Assembly: GCA_964610305.1 (NCBI GenBank) | Contig: CAZSVL010000001.1 | Location: 108,781-172,780 of the forward strand | Direction: 5' to 3' | Length of the DNA stretch: 64,000 nucleotides | From: an uncultured Gammaproteobacteria bacterium | GTDB lineage: Bacteria; Patescibacteriota; Patescibacteriia; Magasanikbacterales; JBBTXJ01 | Shown: one piece after another, positions 6,238 to 57,379 of the stretch | Numbering within the stretch: the first letter of the stretch is position 1 | How the letters are laid out: every line of letters begins with the position of its first letter | Translations under genes and position numbers: made by a program | The notes under the pieces: model-generated | What the model saw: the letters and a program-made list of their open reading frames with translations, nothing else | What the model was told of the DNA's origin: nothing | Databases searched by the model: none

Positions 6238-8036
6238 TAGCTTAGAAGTGCAATAGGGTCTACATCTATTTTGATTCCGCGCGGCAGTGAAAGCTGGTTT
6301 AGGAGATCTGCCAGAATTTCTTTATTCTCTGCTCTAATCAGTAAAACGGCGCCATATTTTCCTCTTTTTATGAGAGGGTGCGATACGTACGGCAGTGTGA
6401 CTATAACGTTTTTTTCTCTAGCCGTCAATTTTGAGGCAGACTCTGCTACAGATCTTAGCTTAGAGAGCGCCATGCCGGTGCTGGCTTCCCAGAGCGACAA
6501 TTTAAGCATGCTTGAGTACGGAGGATAACCCAGTTTTTCTCTGATATGGAGCTCTCTTGAGTACCAAAATTGTGGAGGCTTATCAGTGAGTGATCTAAGA
6601 ATTGCTCTTTGAGGTTCTCTTGTTTGAACAAGAAGGGGACTGCGAGCTGGCATCATGTACTGAATTTCCCTTGCTAGACTGAAAAATTCCTCACTTGCTC
6701 TGTGCTCCGGAATTCCCAACATGCCGTCAGCATCTACTATGCAGACGAAAGCCAAATCTGTCCACGGTGTGCATGCAAGGGCAGCCGACGTACCAATCAG
6801 CACATGAGGGTGCGTTGCTGGTTTGGGGGTATCTGTATCACCATCTACTCGGATAATCGGCAGTATATCCAAAGCACTAACGGCTGAGGCAACATGTTGA
6901 CTGCCTGGACTGTGGAATTTTTGTGCTACTCCACCGCAATTGGGGCAAAGTTCTGGCGGTTTATAGATTCTATTGCATGGGTGGCAGTCAAGCGTCTGCG
7001 TGTCTGCATGATAAATAAGGGGTAGTAGGCATATGGCGCACTGCTCGGCTCTTCCGCATTGCGCGCATTTAACCAGAGAAAAAGAGCCGCGTTTGTGAGT
7101 AATTATAAGACCGCTTTTGCCGTGACTCTTTGCCTGTCTGATGTGCTCAATGAGGTCATCGCTAAGTACGGAGAAATTTTTTCTTTGGTACTCCTGTTTT
7201 TGGTCAATGAGAATTACTGCCTTTTTTGGCGGCAAATGCATGAGCTGGTGATTTTTTAATTTGCGTGCGCTTTTTATGCTCGGCGTGTGGCTGGCGAGGG
7301 TGAGTTGGCAGGGGAGTGAGAGAGCGAGTGACTGAGCTACCTCTGCGCTGTGGTACCGTGGCGCTTGATCCCAATTTTTGTGATGTGCGTTGTGTTCAAA
7401 ATCTACAATTATGCGCTCTAGATTTAGAAATGGCAGAAATACTGCAGCTCTTGTTCCTACTACGGTTTGAGCCTGCCCATTTCTGATTTTAAAGTAGGCT
7501 TCAAATTTTTGTTTTTGTGTGAGGTTGGAGTGAAAGTATAGATCTGCCTTCCACTGCTCTAGATGCCGATGCTCAGGAACAATTATAAGTGTCTGGCCAT
7601 GGCTTGACCTTTTTTCATTCCACGCCTTTTTCTGGTCTTGCCTCTGGTACCAGAGATAGGATCGTTTATATTCATATTTTGAGTCGCAATAGTGTTCCAA
7701 TTCCTGCGAGGCGAGTTTCCTGCGTTGAAGAGGGGGACACATGGATGATAGTATTGGGCCAATGGGAGCGCCATATGTAGCGCTTATCTGCTGCGCAAGC
7801 TTAAGATAAGTATCAGACAAAAGAGGCGTGTCCCAGACCGCCTCCTTAATGCTTGCTAGTTTATCCTCAGGAATATCGGGCTTTCCCCGTATATTAAGAA
7901 CAATTCCAAAAATCTCACTCCGACGGAACGGAATTTTAACAAGCGAACCTGGCTGCACGCTAAAATCAATTTTATAATCCAGGATGGAGAAATTGTTCGG
8001 CAAGCGCCTCAGTGGCGCTACTTTTGCAAATTTCAT
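6237..8036 (-). CDS. priA: primosomal protein N' (PriA) homologue with degenerate helicase motifs
   Basis: PriA-type Cys-rich zinc region CAQCGRAEQCAICL...CHPCN...CPNCG; alignable TLIIVPEHRHLEQW and VVGTRAAVFLPFLNLERIIVDFEHN blocks, but no GxGKT Walker A and DFEH in place of DEEH; conserved priA-def-fmt arrangement. Confidence 0.75.
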   Translation of the reverse strand: MKFAKVAPLRRLPNNFSILDYKIDFSVQPGSLVKIPFRRSEIFGIVLNIRGKPDIPEDKLASIKEAVWDTPLLSDTYLKLAQQISATYGAPIGPILSSMCPPLQRRKLASQELEHYCDSKYEYKRSYLWYQRQDQKKAWNEKRSSHGQTLIIVPEHRHLEQWKADLYFHSNLTQKQKFEAYFKIRNGQAQTVVGTRAAVFLPFLNLERIIVDFEHNAHHKNWDQAPRYHSAEVAQSLALSLPCQLTLASHTPSIKSARKLKNHQLMHLPPKKAVILIDQKQEYQRKNFSVLSDDLIEHIRQAKSHGKSGLIITHKRGSFSLVKCAQCGRAEQCAICLLPLIYHADTQTLDCHPCNRIYKPPELCPNCGGVAQKFHSPGSQHVASAVSALDILPIIRVDGDTDTPKPATHPHVLIGTSAALACTPWTDLAFVCIVDADGMLGIPEHRASEEFFSLAREIQYMMPARSPLLVQTREPQRAILRSLTDKPPQFWYSRELHIREKLGYPPYSSMLKLSLWEASTGMALSKLRSVAESASKLTAREKNVIVTLPYVSHPLIKRGKYGAVLLIRAENKEILADLLNQLSLPRGIKIDVDPIALLS

Positions 8037-9408: not shown

Positions 9409-9437
9409 TTGACAAAAAGTCAAAATTGTGTTACTCT
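9409..9437 (+). promoter_or_regulatory. sigma70-type promoter (TTGACA-17-TACTCT with TGT extension)
   Basis: ttgaca at 9409-9414, 17-nt spacer, tactct at 9432-9437; followed by SD aggagg (9451-9456) and ATG at 9461. Confidence 0.55.
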
Positions 9438-9460
9438 ATCTGGTTGAAAAAGGAGGATAC

Positions 9461-10195
9461 ATGAACGCTCAAATTGAAGCTCTTGTCGCTCAGTGTGTGG
9501 CAAACGGCAAGATGGATCAGGCTGTTGCCGCCTCTCAGCTTAGAAGCGTACCGGGGCTGCGTCTAAGAGAAATTAGGAAGTTGGCCTTGCGCAGAGCGCG
9601 CAGCGCTTGGGTTGACGGAGTGTTGCAGGTTGCTAAGCTCAGAATAGAGATGGCACAAGGAGTCATTGAAAATCTGCATAAGCAGATGCGAGAGCTAGGC
9701 GGCTTTGATAGCGACTTTGACAAAAAGGACGAGTGGCTTAGAAGCAAGAGGCCCGCTGCATGGGCGGATCTGCAGACGTGTCCAGAGCTGCGGCAAATCA
9801 GAGAAAACTATTTTGCCGTAAAAGATCTTAAGAAACGATTAGAAAAGAATAAGGGCGTGACCCCAGAAGAGGCTGACCAGCTTATTGTTAGTTGCGTGCC
9901 GTTGCAACGCATTGATCAGGCTCTGCGCGCTAGCGCATTGGGCGCCTCTGCACGGGGAAACAGTTTTCTTGTCGTGGAGCTTATCTCAGATAGGCATAAG
10001 CGCTACAACGATGCTGCAGCGGTAGCAAGGCGCGGAGTAGCCAGAGAGGTGCTGGACGCTCTGATTGCTGCGTGCGTAAACGCAGGGGCCGTAGAAGTTG
10101 CCGTGGGTGTGGCGCAGATGCGTTCGGCGAGTGGCTTAACAACCAATGAGCTTGCAGCTCTAACGCAAGCATGCTCGGAGCGGGCACAGCAGTAA
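9461..10195 (+). CDS. hypothetical Ala-rich protein
   Basis: ORF-track 9428 (GTG) to 10195; internal ATG at 9461 sits 5 nt after a strong SD and is the likely start; moderately GC-rich; no recognised domain. Confidence 0.5.
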   Translation: MNAQIEALVAQCVANGKMDQAVAASQLRSVPGLRLREIRKLALRRARSAWVDGVLQVAKLRIEMAQGVIENLHKQMRELGGFDSDFDKKDEWLRSKRPAAWADLQTCPELRQIRENYFAVKDLKKRLEKNKGVTPEEADQLIVSCVPLQRIDQALRASALGASARGNSFLVVELISDRHKRYNDAAAVARRGVAREVLDALIAACVNAGAVEVAVGVAQMRSASGLTTNELAALTQACSERAQQ

Positions 10196-10237: not shown

Positions 10238-12892
10238 TGCGGTTCTATTTTCTGTCTTTGTTTTGATGCTCGTTGCAATTCTGAGTTTATCATCTGCTAC
10301 AGATACAAGTACATTGTCTCCTTCGGAGATGGTGCCCTCAATGAGCTGCAAAGCAAGAGGGTCTAGTAGTTCATGCTGGATTACGCGCTTGAGCGGGCGC
10401 GCTCCATATTTTTCATCATAACCTTTTGCTGCCAGCCATTTCTTGGCAGGAGGTGTAAGTTCAATAATTATTTTTTTCTCCGCAAGCCTTTTTGCCACCA
10501 AATCTAGCTGAAGCTGCGCAATGGAGCCAATGTGCTCTTCTTTAAGAGCGTGGAAGGTAATAATTTCATCAACGCGGTTGAGGAATTCAGGTTTAAAGTG
10601 ATCTCTGAGGGCATCAGTGACTTTTTCCTTGATTCTTTCGTCTGCTGAATCGCCATTATCCTGGCCAAAACCAAGACCGCTTCCAGAGCTCACCAGCGCG
10701 TCTGACCCAATGTTAGACGTCATTATGATAACCGCGTTTTTAAAGTTTACCGTGCGCCCCTTGGCATCGGTAAGACGGCCATCGTCAAGAATTTGCAAAA
10801 GCATGTTAAATACGTCTGGATGGGCCTTTTCAATCTCATCAAACAAAATCACGGCGTAGGGCCTGCGCCTAATTATCTCAGTGAGTTGTCCACCCTCTTC
10901 ATAGCCAATGTATCCGGGAGGGGAGCCTATCATTTTGGAAATGGCGTGTTTCTCCATGTACTCTGACATATCCACGCGTACCAATGATTGTTCATCATTA
11001 AACATAAACTCAGCAAGCGCTTTTGCTAGCTCTGTTTTTCCAACGCCGGTTGGTCCCATAAAAATAAAGGATCCAATGGGTCTGTCTGGTTCTCCTACGC
11101 CCGCGCGCGATCTGCGGATAGCATTTGCGATGGCGGCTATGGGTTCTTTTTGTCCGATTACTCTCTTTTGGAGTTCTTGCTCTAAGCGCGTCAGTTTGTG
11201 TGCCTCGTCTTCAAGCATTCTGCTGATGGGTATTCCGGTCCACCGGCTTACCACTGCGGCAATGTCTTGCTCGGTCACCTCTTCTTTTAGGATTTTTCTG
11301 CCTTTTTGAATCTCTGCAAGTTTTTTTTGCGCTTCTCTGACAGCCTCCTGCGCAGCTGGAATTTTTCCGTATCTAATTTCAGCTACTTTCTGAAGATTTC
11401 CCTGACGCTCTGCAATTTCTGCTCCTTGTTTGTATCCATCTATCTTTTTTTGATATTCACGCAAAGAACCAATAATTTCTTTTTCATTTTTCCAATGGAG
11501 TTCCCACTCTTTTGTGTTTTCGGTGATTTCTGCCAGCTCTTTCTCTAAGTTTGAAAGGCGCTCCTTTGAGTCATCATCCTTTTCTTTTTTTAATGCCTGT
11601 TTCTCGATCTCTAGCTTAATTTGCTTGCGTTTCAGTTTATCTAGCTCTGCTGGCATAGAGTCTATCTCCATTCTTAGAGCTGATGTTGCTTCATCCACAA
11701 GATCTACTGCCTTATCTGGCAAGAAGCGATCAGAGATGTAGCGGTTTGATAGTTCTGCTGCAGCAATGATGGCGTGATCCGTAATGCGTACACCGTGGTG
11801 AACTTCATACTTTTCCTTGATACCGCGCAATATGGCAATAGTGTCATCCAAATCTGGCTCGGACACAAGCACTGGCTGGAAACGGCGCTCTAGCGCTGCG
11901 TCTTTTTCAATGTATTTCTGGTATTCCTTAAGCGTAGTTGCCCCAATAGCGCGCAGCTCTCCACGAGCAAGAGCAGGTTTTAACATATTACTGGCGTCAA
12001 TGGCGCCTTCGCTGCCTCCAGCTCCTACAATAGTATGAAGCTCATCAATAAATAAAACAAAACTGCCTTGCGCCTGTTTAATTTCCTTAATTACGGCTTT
12101 GAGCCGCTCCTCAAATTCACCTCTAAATTTTGTTCCTGCCACAAGTGAGCCAATATCTAGTGAGATCACTTCTTTGTCTTTGAGCGATTCGGGAACATCG
12201 CCATCTGCAATACGCTGGGCAAGCCCTTCAATAATAGCTGTCTTACCAACGCCGGGTTCTCCAATGAGAACGGGGTTGTTTTTTGTTCTGCGAGAGAGTA
12301 CCTGCATGACGCGTCTTATCTCATCATCTCTTCCAATTACAGGGTCTAGCTTTTCCTCTCGTGCTTGCGCGGTTAAATTAACGCTATATTTTTCAAGAGC
12401 GTTGTAGCGTGCCTCTGGTTCAGGGGAGTCTACCGTTTGAGTTCCACGTACCGTAGCTAGTACTTTAAGTACTTCATCAAAGGCAATATTGTGTTGTTTA
12501 AAAATTTGAGCGATGGTGGACTTGGATCTTAAAAGACCCATAAGTAGGTGTTCGGTGCTGATATATTTGTCTCCAAGTCTTTTGCTCTCTTGCGCGGCAA
12601 AGTTAAGAACGTGGGCCATGTCGTGACTCATGTAGATTTGTCCAATGCCGGTTCCGCCGCTCACGCCAGTGTGCTTAGGCAGCTTATCAATAAGCTCCTG
12701 CATATGTGTCTTCAGTAGGGTGGTGTCGGCATTGAGTTTGTTGAGCACAGAAATAACAACGCCATCTTCTTGTTCAAGGAGTGCAAAAAGCAAATGCGGG
12801 GGGTCAATTTGTGGTTGGCCGTTTTCTTGAGCCAATAAGTGCGCTCTCTGGATTGCCTCCTGAGATTTTGTTGTAAAATTATTGGGGTTCAT
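10235..12892 (-). CDS. clpB: ATP-dependent chaperone ClpB (AAA+ disaggregase)
   Basis: 885 aa; Clp N-domain, two Walker A sites ([16 protein letters not shown]), coiled-coil middle domain. Confidence 0.95.
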
Positions 12893-18337: not shown

Positions 18338-18401
18338 TAAGTAGTAATTCTTAAATAGTGCTTAAAAATGGCTAAATTAAGCTATTTTTTTAGTTTATGA
18401 C

Positions 18402-18430
18402 TTGACAAAATGGGCAAAATGTGCTATAGT
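18402..18430 (+). promoter_or_regulatory. sigma70 promoter TTGACA-17-TATAGT with TGTGC extension
   Basis: ttgaca 18402-18407, 17-nt spacer, tatagt 18425-18430 preceded by tgtgc. Confidence 0.65.
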
Positions 18431-18517
18431 AGTATAGTCCTCAAAATGGGATAGCCGTACCTGGCACCGTTTTGAGGGTGACGTATCTAACAAAACACAC
18501 ACACCTTAGGGGATTCA

Positions 18518-19570
18518 GTGACCACTAACCTTCGTGAAGAGTTTGACGCCCTCACGGGTACCGATGAAATGAGCGTTGAGGGTGCACTGGAGCACCTTCG
18601 CACTCAGGTGCGGGAAGAGGCCTGCGTTTTTGACGCTCCGGCCATGCTAGAGCAGCTTGACATGATCGCTTTGGTGGAGGAGGGGACTATTGTTCCGGCC
18701 GAGCTGGAGCTTGAAGTCTGCGAGCCTTCTTTGGACGAGCTGGTGGAAGCTGCTCTGGACCGAGAGGATCCAGAAGTGGACCGCGAGCTGGTAGAGAGTC
18801 TGCTCGGAGAGGATGATGGCTTTGAGGGCGGAGCGGTCTTCTATGCCCAGGACATGGCAGACGCTGGCTGGGAGCTCTCTGATCTGGATCACCTTCGTGG
18901 TCTGGAGGCGCTCTCTGACTCTCCGGAGCTAGAAGCGCTTGACGTGGACTACTGGGATCGGATGGACGTCTTGGACGCCCAGGAGAGGGCCCGACGCGCC
19001 AAGGCGTGGAAGTCCTTTTCAACCGACCCGGAGCCCCGCTTGCGTAGGCTGACGGTCATTTCCACTACCGTAGCTCGTGAGGAAGAGACGTACGTGGACA
19101 TCACCGTCTCTGACGGCGAGCACGCGGTGGCCACTTCTGAGCATTCGGTCTACATTCATCAGGATGTCCGTGGTGTTGCTGTGGTGAAGGCCACGGCTTG
19201 GGACATCTCTGACGATCAGATCGTTTACATCAGCGGCTGGGATGCCGTCTTGCGGGGAATCGCTCGTACGGGTATCTTCTTTGCGGTGCACATGGAGCAG
19301 ATCATCAGTCGCGCAAAGCCTAGCGCCTCTAGTGACCCTGCGATCGGCAAGATCGTGGTGGCCAAGGTCGTCAAGCACCTGCGCTCCGGCGTTTTGGTGC
19401 GAAACGAGCACGGTCAGAAGGGTCTGATCGGTGTGGAGACGATCAAGGGAGTTGGCTCAGCAGCCAACGCCATGTCGTTCCTTCGCTCCAAGTGTCCTGT
19501 GGGTCGTGAAGTGACCGTAGAGATCGTGGCTCGCCGCGATCAGGGCGATTTCGTCCTGAAGCTCTCCTAG
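18518..19570 (+). CDS. hypothetical acidic protein with C-terminal S1/OB-like domain; GC-anomalous gene
   Basis: 350-aa ORF with GTG start; about 58-60% GC against about 45% in flanking genes; no stop for 350 codons is highly non-random at this GC; D/E/L-rich N-terminal half; C-terminus GKIVVAKVVKHLRSGVLV...GLIGVETIKG...VTVEIVARRDQGDFVLKLS resembles an S1 domain. Confidence 0.6.
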   Translation: MTTNLREEFDALTGTDEMSVEGALEHLRTQVREEACVFDAPAMLEQLDMIALVEEGTIVPAELELEVCEPSLDELVEAALDREDPEVDRELVESLLGEDDGFEGGAVFYAQDMADAGWELSDLDHLRGLEALSDSPELEALDVDYWDRMDVLDAQERARRAKAWKSFSTDPEPRLRRLTVISTTVAREEETYVDITVSDGEHAVATSEHSVYIHQDVRGVAVVKATAWDISDDQIVYISGWDAVLRGIARTGIFFAVHMEQIISRAKPSASSDPAIGKIVVAKVVKHLRSGVLVRNEHGQKGLIGVETIKGVGSAANAMSFLRSKCPVGREVTVEIVARRDQGDFVLKLS

Positions 19571-19592
19571 GTCTTTAGTAACAGTTAGTTAA

Positions 19593-19629
19593 CCCCCCTT
19601 GTGGTCAACATGATCACGAGGGGTTTTTA
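19593..19629 (+). terminator. intrinsic terminator after the GC-rich ORF
   Basis: hairpin ccccttgtg...cacgagggg (19593-19624) followed by TTTTT. Confidence 0.6.
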
Positions 19630-19635
19630 TTTAGG

Positions 19636-19664
19636 TTGACTTTCGGGGCTTAAAATGGTACGAT
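19636..19664 (+). promoter_or_regulatory. promoter-like TTGACT-17-TACGAT
   Basis: ttgact 19636-19641, 17-nt spacer, tacgat 19659-19664; located directly after the preceding terminator. Confidence 0.45.
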
Positions 19665-19669
19665 CTGCT

Positions 19670-19870
19670 CTCACCATGAGGGAGGACATGTGAGGCTACG
19701 CTTAGAATTCTGGCGACACAGACAGGTTTTGCTAAGCCGACAAATTGGCGAGCCTGAGGTAAGGCGTAGGGGAGTTAGGCCAAGGATTGTATATCTGCGG
19801 CGCATGAGTATGAGAAGAATTGGACGTAGGTAAAGTCAAGTCAGGCTAAGTAGGCAAGCCTGACTTTTTT
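19670..19870 (+). ncRNA. candidate small RNA (about 200 nt, promoter-to-terminator, no ORF)
   Basis: bounded by the promoter-like element above and a perfect 8-bp hairpin gtcaggct (19840-19847) / agcctgac (19857-19864) plus T6 (19865-19870); GC-rich; contains only tiny ORFs. Confidence 0.4.
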
Positions 19871-20840
19871 AATCTGCCTTTTTGAGAGGATGAAAGTCTG
19901 TATGTGTCTTTTCTGCAAAGCGGTCAGATGCATGCACGTAACGCGTTGTGGTATCTAGAGATTCGTGGCCTAAAAGCACCTGAATGGCGGCCGGGTTCGC
20001 TCCGGATTCTGCCAAGTACGTAGCAAAACCATGTCTGAGGGTGTGCGCAGAGATGGGTACATTAATACCAAGAAGCTCTCGGTATTTTTTTATTTTTGAC
20101 TGAAGATAGTTAGGCGATATTCTTCGCTTTTTACTGCCATCTTTTGATCCTGAGCCGCGGTACGGAATAAAAACTGCCGGTGCTTCATCATCTCTGAGTT
20201 TTAGATATGCTTGCAGGTGTCTATACGCACGTGGCGTTAAATACACAAATCTCTCTTTTCGGCCTTTGCCTTTTATAAAAATGCGACCAGAGGAGTCAAT
20301 TTGATCTCGGTTAAGGTTCAGCAACTCTGAAATGCGCATGCCAGTGGAGAAGAGTACTTCAAGCATGGCACGGTTACGCTGGGCGAGGAGGGGATTTTTC
20401 TCAAGCTCTGATGGGGACTCAATAAGCGCCACAAGTTCATTGAGCTCACCAACGCGCGCATGTTTCTTATCGGTTTTAACTAATCTAATGGCACCCGCAG
20501 CAAGAGGGTAGGGGAGGTCCATTTCTACCAAATATTTGAGGTAGGCGCGCAGTGAGCTCAAGTGGCGGTTAACAGAGAACGGTGTAAGCTTTTGCTTTGA
20601 TTTTGATTTTGTTGGGGTAACTCTGTCGGTAGAGTAGAGGTAGGCCTTGTATTGCTCAATGACCTTTTTATCAATGCTTTTAAACGCAAGGCCATGCTCT
20701 GTCATAAAGTGTGAAAAGACCAGCAAGTCTCGCTCGTAATTATAAAGCGTTTCTTTGGAATAGTTATTAGTTTGCAGTGACAATAAGAAGTCATCTAAGT
20801 GATGAAGAGATTGGTTACCTGTGGATAACTTTTTGCTCAT
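19869..20840 (-). CDS. xerC: tyrosine recombinase XerC/XerD family
   Basis: C-terminal catalytic region ...HTLRHGFATYLAESGANPAAIQVLLGHESLDTTTRYVH (R..H..R..Y tetrad context); N-terminal core-binding domain. Confidence 0.9.
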   Translation of the reverse strand: MSKKLSTGNQSLHHLDDFLLSLQTNNYSKETLYNYERDLLVFSHFMTEHGLAFKSIDKKVIEQYKAYLYSTDRVTPTKSKSKQKLTPFSVNRHLSSLRAYLKYLVEMDLPYPLAAGAIRLVKTDKKHARVGELNELVALIESPSELEKNPLLAQRNRAMLEVLFSTGMRISELLNLNRDQIDSSGRIFIKGKGRKERFVYLTPRAYRHLQAYLKLRDDEAPAVFIPYRGSGSKDGSKKRRISPNYLQSKIKKYRELLGINVPISAHTLRHGFATYLAESGANPAAIQVLLGHESLDTTTRYVHASDRFAEKTHTDFHPLKKAD

Positions 20841-26107: not shown

Positions 26108-26211
26108 GCAAGCAGTATAGTTTTTTAGCTGAATTTAGTCAATAAGAAAACCGACCGTGTGTGGCTGGTTGGTGCTTTTTTGCATCTTTGGCGCGAAGTT
26201 GTTTGAATAAT

Positions 26212-26379
26212 GCTGTAGGCTGTAGGCTTTATGCTGTATGCCCTTTTAGCGTCATGCTGAATTTAATTCAGCATCCAGTTAGGAAACTAAGACTTACTCA
26301 ATTTTTACCCTAGATTCTGAATCAAGTTCAGGATGACATGTCGATACCTTACAGTATAAAGCCTACAGCCTACAGCATC
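26212..26379. repeat. composite palindromic element: 29-31-nt outer inverted repeats flanking an 87-nt GTCATGCTGAA...TTCAGGATGAC hairpin unit (MITE/REP-like)
   Basis: left arm gctgtaggctgtaggctttatgctgtatgcc (26212-26242) is the reverse complement of acagtataaagcctacagcctacagcatc (26351-26379); inner unit 26251-26337 with internal palindromes gctgaatttaattcagc and ctgaatcaagttcag; a related copy lies at 40169-40340. Confidence 0.7.
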
Positions 26380-37828: not shown

Positions 37829-37884
37829 GGGGTAGATTGACAAAATACGCTTATTTTAGCCAATTTTAGGGTCTTATTTTGAGT

Positions 37885-40173: not shown

Positions 40174-40340
40174 TAGGCATCAGGCCTCAGGCATTAGTGA
40201 GGTGTCCACTTGTCATACTGAACTTGATTCAGAAACTATGAAGAAACAAAGTACGTCTTGCTGTTATAGTGGATCCTGAATCAAGTTCAGGATGACGCTA
40301 ACTGGGTACTAGTGCCTACTGCCTGATGCCTAATGCCTAT
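40169..40340. repeat. composite palindromic element filling the atpD-atpC intergenic region (outer inverted repeats plus 85-nt GTCATACTGAAC...GTTCAGGATGAC unit)
   Basis: outer arms ggcattaggcatcaggcctcaggcattag (40169-40197) and ctagtgcctactgcctgatgcctaatgcc (about 40309-40338); inner unit 40212-40296 shares the 21-nt ctgaatcaagttcaggatgac with 26317-26337. Confidence 0.7.
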
Positions 40341-55338: not shown

Positions 55339-55443
55339 AGTGCCATTTTAGCATTGTAGTATAAAAAGAGCCACAGCAGCTTTTTTCATTTTTTTTGGTT
55401 TCTGAAATGTGGCTAATTTAAGCCAATTTTGTCAAGTTACCTC

Positions 55444-55472
55444 TTGACAAAATTGACAAAGTGTGCTATACT
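55444..55472 (+). promoter_or_regulatory. sigma70 promoter TTGACA-17-TATACT with TGTGC extension; 38-nt sequence duplicated at 57377-57414
   Basis: ttgaca 55444-55449, spacer 17, tatact 55467-55472; ctcttgacaaaattgacaaagtgtgctatactgctttt is identical at both sites. Confidence 0.65.
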
Positions 55473-55479
55473 GCTTTTG

Positions 55480-56162
55480 TTGCGTTAAGACAGTTCTGCG
55501 CCCACTTCTGTTTCTGTCTTTTGGGTAGTACGGAGCTTGTGCCGAAAAAGGCCCTTAGCGTAACGCTCTTTTTGAAAAGTGTTGGTTTTCCTGCCAGCGC
55601 GCAATGGAGGATGTAGTATGTCTGAAAGGCCCGATCTGCCGCCCGCCTTGTGGAGGCCCGCAGTATTGGAGTCCGTCAGGCCCAGGATCTCAATGGTGAT
55701 TGAGTGAACGGAGCACGGTTGTGGCTAGCGCCTGGCGCTAGGGTTGCTTGCCTCCACAAGCAGCACTTTCCATGTCTGTGGGAGGTTCAACTAGCTAGAA
55801 AGCTTGCAGGAATTCACCGTTTTCTGTGTATGGCCGGCATACTTGCTGACGCGGGGTGCGAGAGATCGCAGCCGAACCAAACCGCTCAGTTAGCGTGGCC
55901 ACGTAGTGGTCGGCTTGTAAAGCTTGTGAGGAGCTACTGATCCTCTGTGGTGATCCCATGGAGGAGCCCACAAGCTGGTATCCTATGAGAGGCTGAAGTG
56001 ATGCAGACCTCTACTCGCCTAACAGTGAGAGCCTTTGCAAGGGCCAGTACGACGCTCCCGCGGGGAGAGTACGTGCAAGGATATTACACAGAAACGTCAC
56101 AAGCGTGGTACTGCGCAGGTTCCACGTGGCCCTCGTCGACAACCGTTGACGAGGGCTTTTTT
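55480..56162 (+). ncRNA. candidate long GC-rich noncoding transcript (about 680 nt), promoter to terminator, no long ORF
   Basis: starts about 8 nt after the -10; ends at hairpin gccctcgtcgac/gttgacgagggc (56129-56156) plus T6; about 57% GC; long-range helix gccttgtggaggc (55645-55657) / gcctccacaagc (55750-55761); contains a 29-codon ORF with perfect SD at 55618-55707. Confidence 0.4.
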
Positions 56163-56164
56163 AA

Positions 56165-56746
56165 TTATAGTCCTAAAAAAAGATCGTCTCCCAATTCTAA
56201 ATCTTCAAATTCCCCTTTTGTGTAATCCCCTTCTGGGAGTTTGCGCGCCGCTTCTACTTTTGAAGCTGCCTCCGGGGGGATGACCTCTGAGATTATGTTT
56301 CCGTTAACGGCTATATTGTTTGCTACTTCACAATAGCCCAGGCAGCCTCTGTATTGCAGAGAGACTTCCTCACTTTCTTGCCCTTCTTTGATTCCAAAGT
56401 GATTTTCTAGCTCTTGCATAATATAGCGCGCATGCTTGGGGCCGCAGGTTTTGGAATCGCAGACTTCAATTCGATCTACCTTTTTGTCATCCCGGACTAG
56501 ATCCGGGATCTCAAGTGATGCGTCTACCGACGATTTTTTACTTGAGATCCCGGATAATTCACTATGTGAATTTCCGGGATGACAGGTGGAGGGTTGTGAA
56601 TTTCCGGGATGACAGATTGGTTTGTTTTGTCCGCATGTGCAGTTTTCGCATTTTGACGGGATCCCTCGGCTCTCCTGCGGATCGCTCGGGGTGACGGGTG
56701 GGTTACCCATAGTATTTTTCGCTATAAAATCTAATGAGTTGCTCAA
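56165..56746 (-). CDS. thioredoxin-like [2Fe-2S] ferredoxin (NuoE-like); N-terminal region of uncertain reality
   Basis: C-terminal CDSKTCG ... GCLGYCE (C-x4-C ... C-x3-C); the N-terminal about 90 codons translate the CCGGGATGACAG repeat elements and overlap the upstream NifU gene by 44 nt, so the true start is probably internal. Confidence 0.65.
   Translation of the reverse strand: MSNSLDFIAKNTMGNPPVTPSDPQESRGIPSKCENCTCGQNKPICHPGNSQPSTCHPGNSHSELSGISSKKSSVDASLEIPDLVRDDKKVDRIEVCDSKTCGPKHARYIMQELENHFGIKEGQESEEVSLQYRGCLGYCEVANNIAVNGNIISEVIPPEAASKVEAARKLPEGDYTKGEFEDLELGDDLFLGL
56486..56615. repeat. GTCATCCCGGAC...TTCCGGGATGACAG hairpin element with tandemly duplicated right end, embedded in the 5' part of the 2Fe-2S ferredoxin ORF
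   Basis: termini gtcatcccgga (56486-56496) and tccgggatgac (56573-56583); inner inverted repeat ccgggatctcaagt/acttgagatcccgg; second copy of gtgaatttccgggatgacag at 56596-56615. Confidence 0.65.
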
Positions 56747-57362: not shown

Positions 57363-57379
57363 TTTTGTGTGTTTAGCTC

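Follow-up and report, generated by a model that had tools for sequence, protein, structure and literature searches.

Does the GC-rich DNA lying next to a Xer tyrosine recombinase gene (xer) in a genome of the Patescibacteria (Candidate Phyla Radiation, CPR) represent a foreign island, or is it a native part of this genome? The DNA in question is a 1.5-kb segment located between xer and the gene for an M23 peptidase, in a stretch of 64 kb (hereafter, the window). It comprises a gene for an acidic protein of 350 aa (gene 1) and, behind it, about 200 nt of sequence. The initial annotation had suggested a horizontal acquisition tied to the tyrosine recombinase, made up of a foreign gene and a small regulatory RNA (sRNA). 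The high GC content of the segment is confirmed; what it contains, however, are two orphan genes that are inherited and under native regulation, and not a fresh import accompanied by an sRNA. We describe here the anatomy of this module, the coding status of its two genes, the way both are conserved at one locus, and the S1 fold predicted for the gene 1 protein. The explanation that we favour, and hold to be reasonably probable, is that the segment is a lineage-restricted, vertically inherited module of two monocistronic protein genes, natively regulated in its Patescibacteria host, whose products are probably RNA- or ribosome-associated.

Two genes at the same junction in two genomes

Gene 1 (18518..19570, + strand) is an open reading frame (ORF) of 350 codons with a GTG start, preceded by the Shine-Dalgarno sequence AGGGGA (18508..18513, + strand). 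Its GC content of 59.1% is the top peak of a 1-kb GC scan of the window (mean GC 44.8%, standard deviation of the 1-kb windows 2.6%), and the distribution of GC over its codon positions (GC1/2/3 = 0.69/0.40/0.68) is a coding signature. The gene 1 protein is on record from a 232-kb NCBI contig and from the Logan assembly of SRR8146441. Its relatives are extremely few. A word-indexed search of 5.8 billion clusters matched the protein only to itself, with none added by a two-sequence profile, and a full HMMER scan of 1.84 billion representatives gave one true homolog, P0002 (383 aa, E 1e-15). Two other HMMER matches, P0003 and P0004, are long repeat proteins showing several weak stretches of similarity to the T/V/D-rich middle of the gene 1 protein, and were treated as compositional. 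Profile searches of JGI metagenomes, IMG/VR, phages and plasmids yielded no further relatives, and a literature search found nothing specific to the module. The searches brought P0002 and no donor, and the family appears, on these searches, to count two known members among billions of proteins.

P0002 is alignable to the gene 1 protein from end to end: the N-terminal part is followed by an acidic stretch of variable sequence, and the C-terminus, with the motifs NEHGQ(K/R)GLI and SFLRSKCP(V/I)G, is well conserved. The identity is 33% over the matched C-terminal 193 aa. P0002 is encoded on L053, an 84-kb contig of the ENA, where the gene order DUF1003-gltX-M23-[P0002]-[gene 2]-xer-ftsQ-serS is that of the window junction. 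Both genes of the module, their promoters and the leader hairpin described below stand at the M23-xer junction of L053 as they do in the window, and the ORF, GTG start and Shine-Dalgarno sequence of gene 1 are kept despite the 33% amino-acid identity. The flanking proteins are 80-93% identical between the two genomes, and the flanking genes ~76% identical in DNA. A further contig, L055, represents the L053 genome at 99.99% identity in a second sample; when a third carrier was sought through the 90% clusters of the neighbouring proteins, only this second sample was recovered. We infer that the module was already present in the common ancestor of the two carrier genomes. As far as this only close relative shows, the gene occurs there with a similar GC content at the same locus, an observation that the initial annotation had itself set against an import.

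The ~200 nt behind gene 1 had been taken for a GC-rich, non-coding stretch and an sRNA candidate. They hold a conserved 47-codon ORF with a Shine-Dalgarno sequence, and the supposed sRNA at 19670-19870 is, judging from its substitution pattern relative to L053, a protein gene (gene 2, 19690..19833, + strand). Its Shine-Dalgarno sequence GGGAGG (19680..19685, + strand) is invariant in L053, with the GTG start 4 nt downstream. The frame has 47 codons in the window and 46 in L053, the single indel being of 3 nt and in frame, and it is the only frame open in both genomes. Codon by codon, 19 are identical, 17 are synonymous (including an AGA to CGG change) and 10 are non-synonymous; the differences by codon position are 11/7/23, i.e. 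23 of 41 at the third position (binomial p = 0.002). The product, MRLRLEFWRHRQVLLSRQIGEPEVRRRGVRPRIVYLRRMSMRRIGRR, contains 16 Arg and no Lys, with a pI of 12 and a net charge of +12.6, and its residues 24-44 (21 aa) are identical in the window and L053. Codon usage is native in this gene (GC3 0.457 vs 0.436 expected, AGA and AGG being used), and the ~50% GC of the stretch is thus due to the Arg codons, not to an unusual codon choice.

The segment 19636-19871 does have a promoter and a terminator of its own, as an sRNA gene should, but its conserved reading frame is not that of a non-coding RNA. The 19670-19870 transcript does not fold more stably than its shuffled versions do (z = -0.86 and -1.54), and what stability it has is mostly that of the terminator. 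Rfam, which the initial annotation had suggested consulting, gives no match for this transcript; at gathering thresholds it returns nothing for the window or for 12 related loci, and permissive thresholds applied to the module gave noise only. No tRNA or tmRNA was found. At the protein level, the peptide has no match in a collection of 15 billion proteins, and gene 2 is therefore unannotated. Neither of the two microprotein orthologs matches a Pfam family at E <= 10, DUF1127 included, and a degenerate DNA pattern for GVRPRIVYLRRMSMR has no match in JGI metagenomes or IMG/VR.

The ribosomal microproteins bL34, bL36, bS21 and the actinobacterial bS22/bL37 offer a comparison set for the gene 2 product. 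With them, and with the DUF1127 proteins, it shares a small size (~25-60 aa), an extreme basicity and a stand-alone gene; its C-terminal half is invariant, as expected for the partner of a conserved macromolecule. It is unlike these small basic families in matching no Pfam entry, in relying on Arg only, without Lys, and in being unannotated. Arginine-rich DUF1127 proteins are described in two reports (PMC11707872, PMC12501420).

Codon usage and predicted fold of the acidic protein

The compositional anomaly of gene 1, including the GC-rich third positions stressed in the initial annotation, is confirmed when its own amino acids and the genome codon usage are taken into account: the observed GC3 is 0.679 vs 0.426 expected, an excess of ~10 standard deviations of the observed-minus-expected spread of 33 reference genes, and the GC3 of the adjoining genes is 0.37-0.44. 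Gene 1 thus has a composition and a codon usage unlike those of its host genome, as an island would. The anomaly is carried by one base. A occupies 8% of the third codon positions in gene 1 of the window and 5% in its L053 ortholog, as against 30% genome-wide, and the codons AAA, AGA, ATA and TTA are absent from gene 1 in both genomes; third-position T, at 24-29% in the two orthologs, is near native. What looks like a high GC in gene 1 would then really be the outcome of avoiding codons that end in A, a bias kept up actively by both lineages and not the leftover of a recent transfer. At four-fold sites of conserved residues in the flanking genes, the window and L053 have the same base in only 30-54% of cases, and the synonymous sites of the two carrier genomes appear close to saturation. 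As a consequence, a passive donor signature should have decayed, and symmetrically, and the codon bias appears to have been maintained.

Two candidate causes of this avoidance were tried and set aside. A generic codon bias of highly expressed genes is unsupported by the ATP synthase alpha and beta genes of the window, which have ordinary codon usage; the window holds no ribosomal protein genes. An overlapping antisense gene is excluded by stop codons in the matching antisense frame, four in the window and two in L053; this frame is unusually open, as the codon bias predicts. Elsewhere in the window, another orphan gene (9428-10195, + strand) has 53% GC and a GC3 of 0.52. It encodes a basic protein of 255 aa as called (219-221 aa conserved with L053), has a consensus-like promoter of its own, and is 53% identical to its L053 ortholog, against 80-90% for its neighbours.

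The gene 1 protein has a pI of 4.5 and a net charge of ~-34, its N-terminal 170 aa accounting for ~-36, in keeping with the acidic N-terminal half noted initially. It begins with a short helical segment that is conserved, continues with a polyacidic region of variable sequence (aa ~60-170) and a middle part of unassigned fold, and ends in a predicted S1/OB fold. The S1/OB-like character of the C-terminus, which the initial annotation had proposed, is borne out by structure prediction. AlphaFold2 run on the whole protein as a single sequence gives a poor model (pLDDT 42), from which a fold search is meaningless. Run on aa 173-350 with the two-sequence alignment, it gives a model whose last 75 residues have a pLDDT of 73-92. 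The predicted topology of this C-terminus is b1-b2-b3-helix-b4-b5 (strands at 107-116, 119-124, 129-133, 159-167 and 172-177 and helix at 143-153, in the numbering of the model), i.e. the five-stranded antiparallel beta-barrel that characterizes S1 (PF00575). The predicted S1-like OB domain (aa ~275-350) corresponds to 19340..19567 (+ strand).

Compared with the PDB by Foldseek, the model has S1 domains as top matches, namely GSP13 (2k4k), M. tuberculosis bS1 (4nnk), YabR (9a5a) and the S1 domain of PNPase (1sro), with E-values of 3e-5 to 1e-3; SPT6, eIF2alpha and RNase R are also matched. The first 10 matches out of 10, and nearly all of the 37 at E <= 1e-3, are S1 domains or S1-containing proteins, and a library of viral structures gives S1 and eIF2alpha-type matches in agreement. 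At the sequence level, the C-terminus of P0002 reaches 15.0 bits with Pfam S1, below the cut-off of 22 (E 0.033), and the window protein has no Pfam match, either whole or as its C-terminal 76 aa, at the curated threshold of PF00575. Sequence matches of the C-terminus to M. tuberculosis bS1 in the PDB have E-values of 0.15-1.3. This weak sequence evidence points the same way as the structural matches. Pfam, PHROGs, NCBIfam and PADLOC give nothing above threshold for the gene 1 protein. The C-terminal 75 aa are thus predicted to form a divergent S1/OB fold; we accept this predicted fold and regard RNA binding as only putative.

The gene 1 C-terminus would share the five-stranded OB barrel, with its helix between b3 and b4, with the Firmicutes single-S1 proteins GSP13/YugI and YabR and with the bS1 repeats, its best structural matches being 2k4k, 9a5a and 4nnk (E ~1e-5 to 1e-4). 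The arrangement around this fold is different. In gene 1 it stands at the C-terminus of 350 aa, after a 170-aa polyacidic half and the unassigned middle part, whereas GSP13 and YabR are proteins of ~130 aa with the S1 domain first, and bS1 consists of 4-6 repeats. Gene 1 further departs from known S1 proteins by its score below the Pfam threshold, by the replacement of its RNA-contact residues and by sequence relatives detectable in two genomes only. On the predicted structure, it is a new architecture of S1-fold protein.

Promoters, leader and terminators

The promoter of gene 1, P1 (18402..18430, + strand), consists of a -35 TTGACA, a 17-nt spacer and an extended -10 TGCTATAGT, and matches the consensus at 11 of 12 positions plus TG. 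It had been described as native-looking, and it is: its 30-nt pattern CTTGACAAAATnnnCAAAnTGTGnTATAnT occurs 4 times in the window, with 0 copies expected by chance. P1 differs from its L053 counterpart at one position. Upstream of it lies an element nearly invariant in L053 (18366..18392, + strand), formed by the imperfect palindrome GGCTAAATTAAGCT (18370-18383) followed by T7. This palindrome motif recurs, at an unchanged distance of 18-19 nt 5' of the -35, in front of the promoter copy at 55443, and a variant of it precedes the copy at 37829 (- strand). The element could serve as a weak terminator for the M23 gene, belong to the promoter, or do both.

The leader of gene 1 begins, at about the first transcribed base, with a 5'-terminal stem-loop (18438..18478, + strand). 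Its outer stem (18439-18449 / 18467-18477) has the two arms that had been noted initially, and it is extended by an inner stem GCC/GGC closed by a hexaloop GUACCU (18457-18462). The same fold is predicted for the window and L053, with the loop CGTACCTG and the 3' arm invariant and the differences in the stem preserving pairing via G-U, which between two sequences amounts to weak covariation. Together, P1, the upstream palindrome and the leader hairpin are the best conserved DNA of the module (84% identical over 112 nt). Stem-loops at the 5' terminus are classical stabilisers of mRNA, and such a role may apply here; the loop could also be a protein-binding site.

Behind gene 1, the terminator T1 (19595..19629, + strand) has a hairpin (19595-19623) with a 13-bp stem and a T-run (z = -5.07); in L053 the sequence at this position is another one, which likewise folds into a hairpin plus T7. 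The promoter of gene 2, P2 (19636..19664, + strand), follows, with a -35 TTGACT, a 17-nt spacer and an extended -10 TGGTACGAT (9 of 12 consensus positions plus TG); the -10 region is invariant in L053, where the -35 is TAGACA at the same spacing. Both elements had been recognized in the initial annotation, as had the perfect hairpin plus T6 at the end of the segment. This terminator, T2 (19838..19871, + strand), has a perfect 10-bp stem and a 9-nt loop (hairpin 19838-19866, z = -3.6) and overlaps the stop codon (19869-19871) of the convergent xer; a different hairpin plus T-run is found at the equivalent place in L053. Because of this arrangement of T1, P2 and T2, genes 1 and 2 are separate monocistronic units.

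The other three copies of the P1 pattern in the window (55443-56162 and 57379-~57745, + strand; 37829-~37395, - strand) each drive a GC-rich stretch (50-55% GC), of ~690, 330 and 400 nt respectively, none with a long ORF. The units at 55443 and 37829 (- strand) end at a clear hairpin plus T-run; that at 57379 has only a T-run and nearby hairpins, and its end is uncertain. Two of the three copies carry an upstream palindrome of the GGCTAAWTTAAGCY type. Rfam matches none of these units, whether gathering or permissive thresholds are applied, and they contain neither a tRNA nor a tmRNA; they are candidate unknown structured RNAs or small-protein genes. Elsewhere in the window, at ~56470-56620 inside an ORF of the opposite strand (56165-56746, - strand), there are two copies of the tandem direct repeat GTGAATTTCCGGGATGACAG and nearby inverted repeats GATCCGGGATCTCAAGT / ACTTGAGATCCCGGAT, which look like a repeat-element insertion in a coding region. 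A promoter consensus similar to that of P1 drives genes for small secreted proteins in distant Paceibacteria. In the Paceibacteria genome of L033 (7047-8100), almost this promoter (CTTGACAAAATAGAAGAAATGTGCTATAGT) recurs in several copies, each driving a small gene that is closed by a terminator; the proteins have a signal-peptide-like N-terminus, and the series begins directly downstream of xer.

Origin and possible role of the module

The module stands among housekeeping genes: gltX, the M23 peptidase with a coiled coil, xer, an FtsQ-type POTRA protein and serS. The synteny serS-ftsQ-xer-M23-gltX is found without the module in many Patescibacteria. Among metagenome-assembled genomes of Komeilibacteria-like and other Patescibacteria, the xer products have 57-67% identity to that of the window, and it is only from such distant relatives that the module is absent; the only close relative found, represented by L053/L055, has it at the same junction. 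The initial annotation had proposed looking for relatives in which the M23 and xer genes are adjacent without the insert. Such relatives exist, as L011, L012 and L017 have M23-xer synteny with a gap of 50-120 bp, but the close relative is not one of them. In L003, L008, L013 and L018, the gap holds unrelated content. The comparison of these loci indicates that the M23-xer junction is variable and the module lineage-specific, and that xer, a housekeeping gene, is conserved as a neighbour with the module and without it.

The contents of this junction in other lineages are diverse. In L003 (3011-5534), a 345-aa soluble ORF is accompanied by two membrane proteins; L013 (6918-10936) has ORFs of 620 and 579 aa, and L018 (6918-8576) a 376-aa ORF sharing a conserved block with the 620-aa ORF of L013. 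In the gaps of L008 (~6990-7440) and L013 (~6950-7210), on the strand opposite xer and oriented as the window module, a consensus promoter stands before ~250 nt of conserved, GC-rich and RNA-like sequence ending in a terminator, for which Rfam gives only terminator-like noise. In L018 (~6930-7400), ~450 nt of GC-rich sequence (up to 55% GC) lie just downstream of xer; when read on the xer strand, they show a promoter-like start and a terminal hairpin, unrecognized by Rfam and ARAGORN. The L053 module has on either side a copy of a palindromic, MITE-like repeat of ~160 nt (core ...AGCGTCATCCTGAACTTGATTCAGGATC...; 9625-9781 and 11478-11642). It is absent from the module of the window, where copies are found elsewhere (26211-26377 and 40205-40309).

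That the segment is a recent mobile island, inserted beside the Xer recombinase or by means of it, could be suggested by its outlying composition, by the adjoining tyrosine recombinase gene and by the MITE-like repeats around the L053 module. This explanation, the one of the initial annotation, is already largely refuted and scarcely credible to us. In a second genome, with flanking genes ~76% identical in DNA, the module is found at this very site and with the same GC and codon anomaly, its promoters are native, and xer is a conserved chromosomal gene in many Patescibacteria that lack the module. In the window, no flanking, direct or att repeats were found, nor any copy of the MITE-like repeat at the module, and no mobility genes, phage or plasmid matches or donor homologs of the module were detected, the 1.8 billion representatives included. 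Like compositionally atypical islands, the module is a strong local GC and codon outlier, absent from distant relatives and located at a junction that varies between lineages; unlike imported ones, it lacks mobility genes, att sites, repeats and donor homologs, it keeps its site and its anomaly across genomes near saturation at synonymous sites, and it is served by native promoters. An ancient acquisition deserves more attention, although we regard it as unlikely: the large gene, or the module, would have come from a high-GC donor before the two carriers split, and would have been fitted with a native promoter and kept donor-like codons. The codons of gene 1 are indeed of the high-GC type (AAG, GAG, CAG, ATC and CGN, with no AGA, ATA or TTA), distant relatives with the same synteny lack the module, and the junction carries different cargo by lineage. 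This account is opposed by the failure to find a donor homolog in 1.8 billion representatives, plasmids or phages, by the near-saturation of synonymous sites, through which a passive donor signature should have decayed, by a third-position T near native (24-29%) when A is not (5-8%), which is not a symmetrical amelioration, and by the native codons of gene 2. As for the actinobacterial donor suggested initially, no evidence of any kind was found.

Other explanations bear on the function of the two genes. The opposite and large net charges of their products (-34 and +12.6), their tight linkage and co-conservation, and the fast evolution of the acidic region next to a nearly invariant peptide would fit a toxin-antitoxin-like or immunity pair, in which the Arg-rich peptide, as a toxin, would bind nucleic acids or act on membranes, possibly those of a host or competitor, and the polyacidic protein would neutralize it. 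However, the strong terminator (z = -5.1) and the second promoter between the genes are not those of an operon, and thus depart from the co-transcription typical of type II toxin-antitoxin systems; no PADLOC, Pfam or NCBIfam toxin or antitoxin is matched, neither product has a signal peptide, and no export gene is nearby. We therefore hold this pair to be quite improbable and a weaker alternative than an RNA- or ribosome-associated role. It is less probable still, and very unlikely in our opinion, that the 19670-19870 transcript is a regulatory sRNA, alone or with a dual function beside the peptide: its short length of ~200 nt and its own promoter and terminator would suit an sRNA, but it has the substitution pattern of a protein gene, it matches no Rfam family and its minimum free energy is no better than that of shuffles, its stability being mostly that of the terminator. 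The fallback idea of the initial annotation, that of a lineage-specific module, fits the evidence.

The vertical inheritance of an RNA- or ribosome-associated module must itself be weighed against several observations. Between the window and L053, gene 1 has diverged much more (33% amino-acid identity) than its neighbours have (80-93%), and this divergence could also stem from a xenolog replacement at a conserved site. There are two independent carriers only, and both vertical inheritance and the covariation of the leader thus rest on one comparison. RNA binding by the gene 1 protein is not assured, because the canonical aromatic and His residues are not kept: when the segments RSGVLV and LIGVET of the window are aligned to PFGAFV and LVHISE of M. 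tuberculosis bS1, the window has S, L and G where the M. tuberculosis S1 has F, F and H, at the canonical RNA-contact positions, which S1 domains have on b2, b3 and b5. P0002 keeps DFGVVV plus a nearby His.

According to the explanation that we favour, an inherited and natively regulated pair of genes, gene 1 would be transcribed from one of the strongest native promoters of the genome, into an mRNA starting with the conserved 5'-terminal stem-loop, which probably stabilizes it or serves as an autoregulatory site. Its product would be a cytoplasmic polyanionic protein ending in a divergent S1/OB fold. Gene 2, with its own promoter, Shine-Dalgarno sequence and terminator, would be strongly transcribed as well and give a polycationic microprotein, of the kind that binds structured RNA or other polyanions. 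Both products most likely act on RNA or on the ribosome, the S1 fold and the Arg-rich peptide being the putative nucleic-acid-binding parts, and the acidic half of the gene 1 protein may pair electrostatically with the microprotein, or with other basic proteins, as a partner or chaperone.

One further possibility, which we put forward only as a long shot, is that the S1-fold polyanion and the Arg-rich polycation form an electrostatically matched, RNA- or ribosome-associated pair unique to a small CPR lineage, and that the avoidance of A-ending codons is selected. Such a pair might consist, for instance, of a ribosomal or RNA-binding microprotein specific to the lineage and of an acidic chaperone or condensate partner dedicated to it, and the avoidance of A-ending codons could free translation from U34-modified or lysidine tRNAs, or protect the mRNA from decay. 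If this were true, composition would be a regulatory device and not the scar of a transfer.

All our results correct an attractive but wrong reading, that of a foreign island with an sRNA beside a recombinase. They indicate that a gene standing out strongly in GC and codon usage can nevertheless be inherited and under native regulation, which calls for caution with composition-based transfer calls in CPR genomes. They also add an unannotated, strongly constrained gene for a 47-aa Arg-rich protein and a new, predicted S1-fold architecture, both of which are candidates for a lineage-specific RNA or ribosome biology in ultra-small bacteria.

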